NCBI GenBank assembly: GCA_010093995.1
Contig: ML992505.1
Location: 1,594,670 to 1,658,669, forward strand
DNA: 64,000 nucleotides
Source: Elsinoe ampelina
Lineage: Eukaryota
Direction: 5' to 3'
A program made the translations under genes and the position numbers. Each line of letters opens with the position of its first letter. Position 1 is the stretch's first letter. The notes under the pieces were generated by a model that saw only the letters and a list, made by a program, of their open reading frames with translations, ran no database searches and was not told where the DNA came from. Of the stretch, positions 1,986 through 6,842 are shown piece by piece.

Positions 1986-3654
1986 ATGTCTTCACTGCTA
2001 CCTCAAGAATTGGTCGACATGGTTGCCGGCCACTGTCGAGATGATCACCGCACCCTATCACGTTTCGCACAAACATGCCGCACGTATCAGACATTACTTG
2101 CTCCCAGGATCTTTCATACACTCGTCATCAGCGATAATCTCAGCAATCCTTTGACCAGGAGGACGATGAATTCCGACTGCACGGGCCAGACATACATGTC
2201 CTGGTCAGACATGATCTCCTTCGTGCAAACTGTCGTTGCTGGATCTATCGTGGCTCGCTTCGTCAGAGTGGTGCATGCTCCGCATATCAACCCTGAACAC
2301 ATCCTCAACCAATTGTCAGATGAGCTCAGGACGATCTATAGAAGCGTGGCGAGACCTTCGGCGAGGATCGACAAGGGAACTTATACAGCGGTGCCTCAAT
2401 GAGATCAAAGGTCCCACAATGTCACCGTCGACCAGGCAAGACTGGATGCGTGACCTGCTACGTGGCGATCGCTTTGGTGACAGTTGGTTGGCTCCCTTGT
2501 TGCTACATCTCCCCAATGTCGAAGCACTTGAAATTGGCTTGGACACCACTGGAGGGAACATCAATCAATGCGGTAGTAGTGATCGTCGTCTATGGAGCTT
2601 GAGAACTCTGTCATCTATCAGAGCTGCAAATCCATTGCCATGCATTGCTCCATCTGCCACGACCAAAACTCGGGCCATCAGGCATCCAAGACCAGGCGTT
2701 TGTGACTACTCCTCATTTTGGATGCACGAAATTTGCGATCCGCTTGACGCCGTGGGGTCATATAAGACAAGACTCGATTCGCTGAGGTCTCTCGTCATTC
2801 GAGACCTGCAACTCACTGCTCGTGAGGCATCGAAAAGTGCGTATTGCAAGCTCACACGTTTAGAGCTGCACGACTGCTTCTCAACTGAGCAAGACACGTC
2901 ACTAGCATTTTGCAGAATCAAGGCCCCAGTCATCACCCTTATCATCACGAATCGTAATATGGACCGGGAATACATATTTGCATCCTCCCCAATACCGCTA
3001 GGCTATAGACACTCACCTTCGTCAAACACCATGCCACTTCGCATCGTTAGATTTGCTCTGCACAATTTTCGAAACACATTGGAGGAACTGGCTATCCACC
3101 GACATATGATCCAAGGGCCATGGTCAGATCGTACACCACTACGTCTTGTTTCACTTCAGAAACTACGTCGGTTACACATACACGGTTGGTATTTCTCGCT
3201 AGACCAATCAGGCCTGCTTCCCGATTTCAAGAAGCATCTGCCACCCTCACTCGAAGAGCTCTGGATTACGAACATTCACAAAAACCATAATGGAATCCTC
3301 GTCGCACCTCTAGCTGTGCGCCGGGACGCCCATCCCAACCTCAAGAGAATCATGCTCGATATTCGAGAGGTGGACACGCCTCACAAGAGCGATATATTCT
3401 CTCTCGAGCACCTGTCCAAGAAGGACACGAAGATTTTGATCTGCAGTCCGCGCCCGCACATATCGCCGTGCAGCAAAGTCTGGAACAATCTGACGAGCAG
3501 GTATGTTCGAACTGATTGCAAGTGTGGTTACGAAGACGGGGGGCGTCGAGTTGAAACGGGGTTCGATGATGTGGATAGCTACCATACACGGATACTGACG
3601 AGTCCGGGGACGCCTGTGGAGGATTGGAATCGGAGAGAGCTGTTTCATATGTAG
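1986..3654 (+). pseudogene. F-box/LRR-like protein interrupted by an apparent single frameshift near 2330-2390 (pseudogene or sequence error)
   Basis: ATG at 1986 gives an F-box-like MSSLLPQELVDMVAGHC..TLSRFAQTCRTYQTLL that ends at a stop at 2402. The LRR body continues in the overlapping frame 2236-3654. Spacing relative to the upstream paralog leaves no room for an intron. Confidence 0.6.
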
Positions 3655-3949
3655 CAGTCAAGGTCACAAGATTTGATAGCGAACCTTGTTCCACGCTTGT
3701 TCTCCCAAAAGGCAAATAGCAGGAGCTAAGAGACGACATCTATTGCACTGATATGAAACGTAGAATGTGCCAAAGAGAGCCAAGATAGAACGAATACAAT
3801 GTGTCGAAATTTCTCTTGAGACACTACCTACCCCAAAACTGACCGTCACGACCGACTTGCCACAATGAGCTCACATATCGTCGCACATGCCAAAGTCCCC
3901 TCCCACAATATCCAAGGTATATATTTATTCTCATCCGCCTTTCCCCTCA

Positions 3950-4104
3950 CCAGCGCATCCAATGCGTATGTGGTGCCAATCAAATCACCAGGCGGAAATC
4001 GATCCACGTAACCACAGTTCTCTGTTCGATTCAGAGAGGGTTAATGGTCGCAAACGTGGTCGCCAACGGGGTTTGGGAATCGGCAATCCCAGCGATTCTT
4101 TTTT
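3950..4104 (+). ncRNA. Candidate structured RNA polymerase III-type ncRNA of unknown family
   Basis: TATATATTTA at 3918-3927. B-box-like GTTCGATTC in a CTCTG-TTCGATT-CAGAG hairpin (4020-4036). Several nested stems. T6 (4099-4104) and T5 (4108-4112) terminator-like runs. Confidence 0.45.
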
Positions 4105-4875
4105 GCGTTTTTGGTCGGGGGTTCGAGCCGTGGTGAGGTCGGATTTTTTGGCTGGGAGGGGGGTGGTTACATGTCAGGTGAGGCTGGGGTGCTGTTACAA
4201 TGACTGAAGGGGCGGTGGTGCTAGAGTAAGCCTGCTTTGGGGTGGAGTTGTATAGGGTTGATTGAGGACGTTGTGTATGGCACGAACCTGCTATGGTTTA
4301 TTGAGGCTGCTGCAATCTTGCTGTATCTCATGGGACGGGAAGACACCTTGCCGGATTCGCGGCTAAGATACGGCATCTCCCAGTGGTTTTCAGCAGGTCT
4401 CTGTGCCTCAATGCCTGGGGTCGACATGATAGGATGTATGCATGACCCCTGAGTGCGCCGGCCGAACATTGAGGCTGCACCGGAACGAATGCAACTCACT
4501 TTCGCCGCAGCGGCAGAAAGGCTTTAGAGCAGTCGGAATGGTCATAATCGTCAATAGAGAGCAAGTAAAGCGGTATACTGTACAGTATCTCATGCATGTC
4601 GGTCGATGGTATGCACCCGATCAGGTCACGTCACATCACATCACGAGGCCGCCCACTCGTCTACTGCAGTACAATCACTTCTACTAGATTCCCATGGTGC
4701 GCACTTATGAACGAAATGCAATGATTTCGGATAATGATAAGAGCTCGAGTTAAAGAAGATGGAGAGGTCGGCTGGCGTTGATGACTAAGCATATCTGAGG
4801 TCGACCGCGGATCTGGAGAAGTTGACGAAGCTGCCCAGGAAATTTTGTAGAGCAGCAGACCAACACATCAAGGCA

Positions 4876-6842
4876 ATGATAACCCGGCAACTGGCTCTCG
4901 GGCGCGGTATGTTGACATGAGACCGTACTGGAACCCACGCTAACCAAACACTCCAGGCCGCATAGCTCTCGCAAAGCCCTCGTCGCCAGCATGGCGAAGA
5001 GCACTCGCGACTGCAGTCGACCAGCACACCTCTTCCATGCCTACAGCTGATCCAGTCAGTCTGGATCTTCCCTCACAATCTGCATCATCTACTCGAGTAC
5101 CTCAAGCATCGTTACGTCCCGCACTGGACCCAAAGTATGGACGCTTCGCTCTCGACTACGAAGAATCTCAAGCATTCCGAAAGAAGACTCGTTCACTGGG
5201 AACACATTTGACGCCACATTATCGACCCCGGGAGCTGATTTCGAAACCACCTGGTCCGGCTGATGTCACCTTGGAAGCCTTGATGGCTGCGCAGTCTCAT
5301 TTTGGCCACGCGACAGGTCTTTGGCATCCAGGCAATGCACGGTACATTTACGGTGTCCGATCGGGGATCCACATCATCTCTCTAGATGTCACAGCTTCGC
5401 ATCTTCGTCGAGCTGTCAAGATTGTCCGCAACACAACTTCGATGGGTGGACTGGTCTTGTTTGTTGGTACAAGAGATGGGCAATCTCAATCGGTAGTACG
5501 AGCGGCGGAACTGGCTGGTGGATGCCATCTCTTCGATCGCTGGATACCAGGCTCCATCACAAATGCACACCAGATTCTCGCAAAATGTCGAAAGACTGTC
5601 CGTGATATGGAGGGCAACGAGGTGCCTGGCTTTGAAGAACAGCTCGACAAGCACCCGGCTCTAAAACCCGATCTTGTAGTCGTGCTCAACCCGCTTGAGA
5701 ATTATGTCCTACTTCGGGAATGCAGACAGCACAACATACCAACAATTGGAGTAGTAGACACAGACTGCAATCCGACTTGGGTCACTTACCCAATTCCAGC
5801 AAACGATGACAGTCGACGCTGTACCAATTTCATTGCTGGTGTTCTCGGCCGGGCAGGAGAGGAGGGCAATAAGGCAAGAGCTGGATTTGTAGCAGAATTC
5901 GGCGCCTCACCTCATGAACAAGGACATCAGCTCGAGCTCGCCTCGGATGAAGAAGGAGAGGAGGGTGAAGAAGACCTCGCGAATCCAAAGCCCTCTCCGT
6001 ACGAGGACCAGGAAGCCCGCAGAATACAGGCAATCAATAAGACCCGAAATGCCACTTCCGCAGACGAAGACGGTCTCCTCGGCCCGGTCGAACTTCTCGA
6101 CGAAGCCCAGACGAACGCAGCATTCTACATCAACGACCTCAGCGACGAATCCGATCTCGCAACAGACATCCTCGCAGCCGACTTCATCCACGGCCCACCC
6201 GACCACGCTCTGACAGACGCCGACCTCACAGAAGCCGAATCACACCTCACAGAAGCCGGCGTGATGGTTGACGGCAGCCTCACCAGCCCACTTATCCAAC
6301 TCACCCCCGAAGAAGGTCGTCGCCTCGAAGCACTAGCCGAAGAGGCCAACGACGAGCAAATCACCGAAGAAGAAGCCGCCAGCCTCATCCGCGACGCCAA
6401 CGCCATCGCCTCCCGGGGCCTCCAAATCTCCATGCCTACCGTGCAAGACACCACTGGCTCCGCCCTCCGCAAGTTACGCGAAGCAGAAGATCCCTCCCTC
6501 GCGCGTCTCGTCGCCATCAAGCGCCGGGCACTGGGCGAGACTCTGAGCGCCGCGGATCTCAAGGTCCTGGAGTCCGTGGAGGCAGAGGAGAGAGAGGTCC
6601 GCAAGAGGGTGAATGAGAAGAGAGCGGAGACGATCAAGCAGTTGACGGAAGCGATTGCAGAGGCGGATGAAGAGGCGAAGGAGATCGAGCTCGAGGAGGC
6701 GGACGAGGAGGACGAGCTGGGAATGGAGGAGTACGAGGAGAGGCAGCGGAGTCGGACGGCGCATTACGATGATCCGGATGAGGGCGGGATCGGACCGATC
6801 AGGAAGAACAGACGGGGAGGGGGTGGGGGATTTGAGCGGTGA
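4876..6842 (+). CDS. MRP4: Mitochondrial small-subunit ribosomal protein uS2m (exons 4876-4906, 4957-6842)
   Basis: S2 motifs HFGHATGLWHPGNARYIYGVRSGIHII, RWIPGSITN, PTIGVVDTDCNP..YPIPANDDS. A 50-nt GTATGT..GCTAAC..CAG intron adds an Arg-rich targeting peptide (MITRQLALGRGRIAL..WRRALAT). Confidence 0.92.

Follow-up and report, generated by a model that had tools for sequence, protein, structure and literature searches.

In yeast, TFIIIC recognizes the A and B boxes and thereby recruits TFIIIB to the TATA box. Y RNA and YrlA are RNAs of Pol III size with a bulged stem, and YrlA additionally has a T-arm. For the SNR6 gene of Saccharomyces cerevisiae, the available part of the source describes a TATA box upstream, an internal A block, a B block 3' of the coding region, and an oligo-T end (PMC5855946). 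The pri-milR-1 of Neurospora crassa, as far as the accessible portion of its report goes, is an intergenic RNA of ~170 nt that is made by Pol III in a TATA-dependent manner and ends in a T cluster (PMC3547838). We analyzed a candidate of related layout in a stretch of 64,000 nucleotides from Elsinoe ampelina, which is called the window in the following and to which all positions refer. The gene occupies positions 3918-4129 on the + strand and is very probably an orphan Pol III gene in a small gene family. Its RNA belongs to none of the catalogued families searched, while the promoter is of a known kind.

Surroundings and known RNA families

The window gene lies between a 459-aa ORF without Pfam family (2275-3654, +) and a ribosomal protein S2-family gene (MRP4-like; 4860-6842, +; PF00318, E 1.9e-64). 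The latter has a 5' intron at ~4906-4955, whose GT..AG joint was seen in two of four runs. An RNA-type contig spans 3500-3777. In three presumed-RNA runs no contig covers 3805-4048, which carries no weight for or against expression. An overlapping ORF of 106 codons (3887-4207) has no Pfam match and is frameshifted by a 4-nt insertion in the paralog on C8. As a side observation, the tandem ORFs 33-1439 and 2275-3654 are of similar make (LEVLDL/VEALEI, LENLTL/LEELAI, LEELW) and have no Pfam assignment; an intron may connect the second to the ORF 1800-2402. A protein near the window gene clusters at 90% with a protein of Elsinoe batatas.

The first-pass annotation of the window had proposed the gene of a Pol III-type RNA of ~155 nt that falls into no recognised family. 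This description holds, as the element has no Rfam match, is not a tRNA and has paralogs with compensatory changes. Rfam gave no match at E<=10 over the window element, including the models of U6, SRP, RNase P, and RNase MRP. Over 12 further loci nothing relevant was returned but a U6 match that was partial, under the cut-off, and interrupted. The canonical genes sit elsewhere in the genome (U6 on C12, SRP on C2, RNase P on C8, RNase MRP on C13), and the window gene is therefore not a missing canonical RNA. The U6 gene (L018:1501-1705, G000:C12) is apparently split by two spliceosomal introns and is followed by a B box, and the RNase P and MRP genes (L022 and L023) both end in T4 only. A cloverleaf is absent, as had been noted before: ARAGORN found no tRNA genes in the window, and the T-arm alone is present. 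No model of a C/D or H/ACA snoRNA matched over the element, and neither C/D boxes nor a 3' ACA occur in its sequence. Likenesses to twister, pistol, and 7SK, which were considered from the general features of these RNAs, received no model support; the type A RNA has a single GATC. Literature searches, with most subscription papers outside their scope, brought up no account of RNAs of this kind from Elsinoe or any other Dothideomycete.

The promoter frame

A possible upstream promoter element, the word CAAAGTCCCC (3891-3900, +), lies 24-25 nt ahead of the TATA box. Among the seven genes compared, AAGTCC stands at an equal distance in three (the window gene and the orphan genes on C2 and C9) and is absent from the genes on C8, C1, and C14 and from U6. 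The TATA box TATATATTTA (3918-3927) and a pyrimidine-rich spacer together take up 3918-3948 (+) and lead to the putative start at A3949. Positions 3910-3949 match the SRP RNA gene of the same genome in 32 of 42 columns. Since the Rfam model begins 32 nt behind the TATA box in the SRP gene and 29 nt behind it in the U6 gene, the window RNA probably starts near A3949. Further downstream follows an A-box-like element (3972-3982, +; GCCAAT at 3975-3980), a putative label based on its position and its likeness to GTCAAT of U6. GYCAAT is found 56-61 nt past the TATA box in five of six orphan genes and 46 nt past it in U6, and the C12 gene has it, too. It is absent from the C9 gene, both genes at L038, and the SRP gene, and is imperfect compared to the A-box consensus.

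The Pol III terminator (4099-4112, +) consists of T6 (4099-4104) followed by T5 (4108-4112). An extragenic B box, GGTTCGAGCC (4120-4129, +), lies 16 nt behind T6 and beyond the range covered by the first-pass annotation, which had rested the promoter on an internal B box. This assignment found no support, as the B box common to the family and U6 is the one 3' of the terminator at 4120-4129. The U6 gene of the same genome contains TATA, GTCAAT, a T-run, a second T-run and then GGTTCGACTC, which is the frame of the window gene. With the SRP gene of this genome, too, the window gene has its promoter frame in common. The B-box stretch (4120-4143) is identical in 23 of 27 positions in the C8 paralog, compared to 12 of 23 in the spacer before the B box, and a B box behind the oligo-T is retained in the paralogs on C8, C1, and C2. 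Unlike U6 and the orphan genes, the RNase P and MRP genes show no frame of TATA and downstream B box in the stretches examined.

A search for the full frame (TATA, GYCAAT 44-70 nt on, T5, B box behind) matched a single place in the window and none of 300 shuffles, with the pattern having been composed after the locus had been seen. The combination of T-run and B box alone is not enriched over the control (10 vs 9; 5 vs 4), and the promoter evidence is therefore the joint frame. We are confident that the window gene is a real Pol III gene, and its promoter type is the known textbook one. By analogy with the established yeast mechanism, TFIIIC would occupy the A box within the gene as well as the B box past the terminator, and would bring TFIIIB to the TATA box. 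Pol III would then start at ~A3949 and stop within T4099-4104, giving rise to an RNA of 152-156 nt ending in oligo(U).

Predicted fold and paralogs

All motifs of the first-pass annotation were found at their positions: CGCAT 3954/ATGCG 3962, TGGTG 3971/CACCA 3986, GGCG 3991/CGCC 4061, CCACGT 4004/ACGTGG 4054, TAACC 4009/GGTTA 4039, CTCTG-TTCGATT-CAGAG 4020-4036, and GGGAATCG 4075/CGATTCTT 4093. The RNA is predicted to fold into a 5' hairpin, an A-rich linker, a bulged rod with a T-loop cap, and a terminal hairpin, and changes in the paralogs support this fold. The 5' hairpin (3949-3974, +) consists of ACCA/TGGT and GCGCAT/ATGCGT with a variable loop (pair probabilities 0.75-0.99); in the C8 paralog the loop is altered and the stem retained. 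A hairpin TGGTG/CACCA(3986) had been proposed before, but its pairing probability is 0.00, and TGGT pairs with ACCA 3949-3952 instead (0.83-0.94), which closes the 5' hairpin. According to the MFE structure and the pair probabilities, a long imperfect stem, the rod, extends over 3978-4075 (+). Its base is the motif AATCAAAT at 3978-3985 with GTTTG at 4071-4075, and its outer stem (3981-3989/4068-4075), which had been overlooked, reaches 0.97-0.99 for the six outer pairs. An inner stem (3991-3995/4060-4064) and a further stem (4004-4009/4054-4059) follow. The 25-nt block common to the subfamilies (3991-4015, +) includes a one-sided 8-nt bulge, AAATCGAT (3996-4003). The stem TAACC/GGTTA pairs at 0.41-0.55 and is rivalled by ACCA/TGGT (4011-14/4045-48) at 0.38-0.44.

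The apical hairpin (4018-4038, +) has tRNA T-loop geometry, and the proposed T-arm of 5 pairs and 7 nt forms with a probability of 0.98. Its GTTCGATTC (4024-4032) also matches the B-box core. Only two B-box-like words closed by a 5-pair stem occur in the 64 kb on both strands, and this T-arm is one of them. The terminal hairpin GGAATCG/CGATTCT (4076-4099, +) was likewise recovered (0.74-0.95) and carries compensatory changes in C8. Both the 5' and the 3' end of the RNA are unpaired in the fold. The earlier description of the element as densely structured did not stand, since the z-scores of the whole element against dinucleotide shuffles are -0.96, -1.87, -0.86, -0.68, and -0.41. The apical part alone reaches -2.3 and -2.5 against such shuffles.

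A DNA search of the genome gave three matches: the window gene itself, a copy on C8 matching at 84% along most of the query, and one on C1 that matched in the region of the terminator. A pattern of the 25-nt block with <=3 mismatches, run on both strands, matched four places in the genome and thereby added C2; the control gave 0. C1 was thus reached by two separate routes, the terminator/B-box stretch and the 25-nt block. The C8 paralog is identical to the window gene in 127 of 134 positions over 3971-4104, compared to 23 of 68 upstream and 27 of 63 downstream. Four of its seven body changes make two compensatory pairs, 3986:4070 (C-G to U-A) and 4079:4096 (A-U to G-C), and a fifth preserves a pair (A-U to G-U at position 4078). 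The change T4021C breaks one T-arm pair. The change at 4039 breaks a pair of TAACC/GGTTA, and a new 4017-4039 pair extends the apical stem. When the changes were placed at random 200,000 times on the MFE structure of the window RNA alone, at least two compensatory pairs arose with P 0.0016, the covariation evidence being that of two sequences, the window gene and C8. When the full-length C8 RNA begins at the A that matches 3949, a rival fold is favoured by 1 kcal/mol, and C8 takes the shared fold only if its RNA begins 2-3 nt further upstream. An RNase P/MRP-like P4 pseudoknot (AAAT..TCC with GGAGTTT) had also been considered and was dropped, because the compensatory pair 3986:4070 puts GTTT in the outer stem.

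The more distant copies on C1 and C2 have a distinct 5' domain and no T-loop, but retain the block 3991-4015, with 21 of 25 positions identical in C1 and 18 of 25 in C2. All five cores, when folded separately, show an outer stem, an inner stem, a bulge of 8-11 nt in the 5' arm, and an apical hairpin. When 11 loci were searched with a model built from the window gene and C8 alone, C8 was followed by C2 (E 0.071) and C9 (E 0.21), both in register; these two scores are weak, and C1 was missed. A five-way MAFFT alignment misaligned the cores and was excluded from the analysis. The run X1 stems from a relative at low depth (5 of 99 letters differ in the neighbouring gene) and gave a depth-2 contig over 3890-4038. 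Of its 11 differences, five could be placed, four of them to the spacer and one to the 5' loop; none of these five lies in 3961-4007. The other six were unplaced. A separate observation concerns run X5, in which a 2-kb RNA-type contig ends within the C8 paralog (L002:1270-1590) and carries the C8 3' end. This contig is probably the 3' end of a transporter-like gene on the opposite strand, which would overlap the C8 copy in antisense, judging from its putative direction.

The copies might also go back to the recent duplication of a promoter cassette for Pol III, or of an additional TFIIIC site, the RNA, if made, having no selected function and the likeness of the copies reflecting descent or gene conversion. 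The unremarkable z-scores of the whole element are in line with this. Furthermore, the window gene and C1 are 84% alike in the terminator/B-box stretch, which is as well kept as the RNA core. When metagenomes were scanned for the conserved block, in a collection in which fungi are perhaps thin, none of the 13 matches had the gene frame and none was a homolog. But the body of C8 is far better kept than the flanks and carries the two compensatory pairs, the stem topology is retained across subfamilies with unrelated 5' domains, and the X1 relative has both the syntenic window copy and a C8-type copy. We therefore regard a mere cassette as rather improbable.

The T-arm raised the question of a tRNA-derived SINE head or a YrlA-like tRNA mimic with the T-arm as the working part. 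The canonical arm of 5 pairs and 7 nt does lie ~50 nt past the A-box-like word, which is a tRNA-like spacing. However, each copy has a TATA box upstream and a B box downstream, and retroposition does not copy a TATA or B box outside the transcript. The SINE head suggested by the first-pass annotation is unlikely for this reason. Moreover, the T-arm is present in just two copies (two of five closer relatives), it is gone from C1, C2, and C9, and one of its stem pairs is broken in C8; the copy numbers, two close and two to three distant, are lower bounds. There is no A-tail at the 3' end and no cloverleaf. A search for TROVE/Ro60 gave 0 candidates in this possibly incomplete genome, whereas the control rang in 2 of 14 genomes. 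Overall, both the SINE and the mimic appear highly improbable, and the T-loop is better described as a variable module that perhaps also serves as a second B box.

The main rival is a milRNA precursor. Here, the transcript would be a Pol III-made primary milRNA like Neurospora milR-1, from which a Dicer/Argonaute-linked cut releases a guide of ~20-25 nt, most likely from 3991-4015. Size and layout (intergenic, TATA, T-run end) resemble those given for pri-milR-1 in the available part of its report (PMC3547838). The block sequence is retained (21 of 25 in C1), although its 3' part lies in stem and bulge in the window RNA and in a loop in C1 and C2. The rod also keeps within the limit of 20 unpaired bases for fungal hairpins, which is a loose test as worded in the accessible part of the source (PMC9757828). 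It would nevertheless make a poor Dicer duplex: the longest helix has 7 pairs, the MFEI is 0.59, and the best 21-nt window still has 10 unpaired positions. The block pattern matches the four family genes only (<=3 mismatches, both strands), and the genome thus holds no near-perfect milRNA target. Four genes of a second subfamily have the stem base but not the block, and no A or B box is predicted for milR-1 in the portion of the report available (PMC3547838). On this balance we consider a milRNA precursor unlikely, yet worth weighing.

We favour the reading that the Pol III gene is real and that its RNA functions in intact form, as a ribonucleoprotein, and we give this combination somewhat less than an even chance. 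The uncut RNA would then act as a protein-binding scaffold or decoy. The stem base next to the terminal hairpin and the U tail, together with the inner stem and the bulge, may form the binding site, with the 5' domain and the apical cap free to vary. Neither a protein partner nor a target was found for the window RNA.

A wider set of orphan genes and comparison with known systems

Searches with promoter patterns revealed four more orphan genes of another sequence type, one on C14, one on C12, and a tandem pair upstream of ORC6. This second subfamily has the stem base and lacks the 25-nt block. The genes on C9 and C14 and one of the L038 genes were found via the T-run/B-box pattern. Places with an incomplete frame were dropped (2 of 8, 2 of 5, and 4 of 10), and the family count is a lower bound. 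A stem-base motif composed of AA(T/G)CA(N)AAY, 51-85 nt, GTTT(G/C), a terminal hairpin, and >=T5 is present in nine of nine orphan genes checked (window, C8, C1, C2, C9, C14, C12, and the L038 pair). It is absent from U6, SRP, and L040 and occurs once in the 64-kb window. Having been derived from these same genes, the motif provides a hypothesis to take to other genomes, but is itself no test.

The C14 gene (L016/L051; G000:C14:355164-355440, -) and the C12 gene (L050; G000:C12:80780, -) are paralogous U6-type orphan genes of ~200 nt without Rfam match. Each contains three copies of CTGTTACACTC...GATGCGCG, and these repeated sites suggest that the RNA may titrate a protein. The tandem pair (L038:1308-1548 and 2068-2312, G000:C2) has CAGATG hairpins, AATCACAAC/GTTTG, and the terminal hairpin in common with the C12 and C14 genes. 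Between the two L038 copies, the inner stem GCGCC/GGCGC is replaced by GTTCC/GGAGC. L040 (G000:C5:1449759, +) is a U6-type gene of ~290 nt that has a TATA box, 5' and 3' ends that pair with each other, and a T7 run followed directly by GGTTCGACTC. It is unrelated to the other orphan genes and has neither an Rfam match nor the stem-base motif. L039 was rejected as a member; it has AAATCGATCC, T6, and a B-box-like word but no TATA box, and its alignment was no better than 31 of 200 shuffles.

The orphan Pol III-type gene on C9 is ~208 nt long. Its CCCTAACC (L015:1632-1639, -; G000:C9), a permuted complement of the TTAGGG repeat, lies directly 3' of a long stem, a placement that looks telomerase-template-like. 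We also weighed whether these are template- or guide-bearing RNAs for an enzyme, e.g. telomerase-like, with the 8-nt bulge or the A/C-rich linker being read or paired in trans. Besides CCCTAACC just past a stem and before the shared rod in C9, the one-sided bulge in five of five cores fits this idea. It is opposed by the window RNA itself, whose telomere template is no longer than TAACC, and by the lack of an Rfam match and of visible U-rich/A-rich pseudoknot strands. Furthermore, in a comparison that covered the gene stretches of four RNAs (U6, SRP, RNase P, and MRP), the window RNA had no longer complement than shuffles did (16, 47, 60, and 26 of 60). A template or guide role thus seems very doubtful.

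Taking the orphan genes together, we tentatively entertain that filamentous ascomycetes possess a class of Pol III RNAs that has so far gone unrecognised, with at least nine genes here, four subfamilies, a U6-type promoter, and one protein-binding signature. The putative signature would comprise the AAUCA(N)AAY/GUUUG stem base, the terminal hairpin, and the U tail, whereas the T-loop cap, the tripled CUCUG/CAGAUG hairpins, and the CCCUAACC stretch would be modules of individual subfamilies. If this holds true, there should be an unrecognised ribonucleoprotein with interchangeable RNA subunits. The stem-base motif offers a handle with which one could look for the class in the genomes of further fungi and pull down its protein. 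If expressed, the orphan U6-type Pol III RNAs (at least nine) would outnumber the canonical non-tRNA ones in this fungus. Their expression would also allow a direct test of whether the Pol III milRNA loci of fungi and the orphan structured RNAs make up a single group or two separate ones.

Compared to Y RNA and YrlA, the window RNA has unpaired ends and no D-arm, and no Ro60 gene was found in the genome. The ncRNAs of Aspergillus fumigatus, Afu-182, -202, -309, and -336 among others, are, like the window RNA, intergenic, structured, small, of unassigned class, and from a filamentous ascomycete (PMC2377427, as far as available). These unclassified Aspergillus RNAs show no common motif, the term 'pol III' is absent from the accessible text, and the conserved ones measure 220-350 nt (PMC2377427). 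The window RNA is set apart from them by description only, and their sequences may bear on membership. The same applies to milR-1, which was likened to the window RNA by description only and whose sequence may likewise bear on membership. According to the available part of its report, milR-1 is processed and lacks predicted boxes, whereas the window RNA has an A-box-like element, B-box words, and a heavily bulged stem (PMC3547838). Unlike SNR6, the window RNA is free of U6 sequence, as it has neither an ACAGAGA box nor a match to the U6 model, and its gene has an internal B-box-like T-loop in addition. The distance from the A-box-like element to the B box is about 145 nt in the window gene, that from A to B block ~200 bp in yeast SNR6, and with its TATA box, its oligo-T terminator, and the B box behind it the window gene has the same layout as SNR6, as described in the portion of the source available (PMC5855946).
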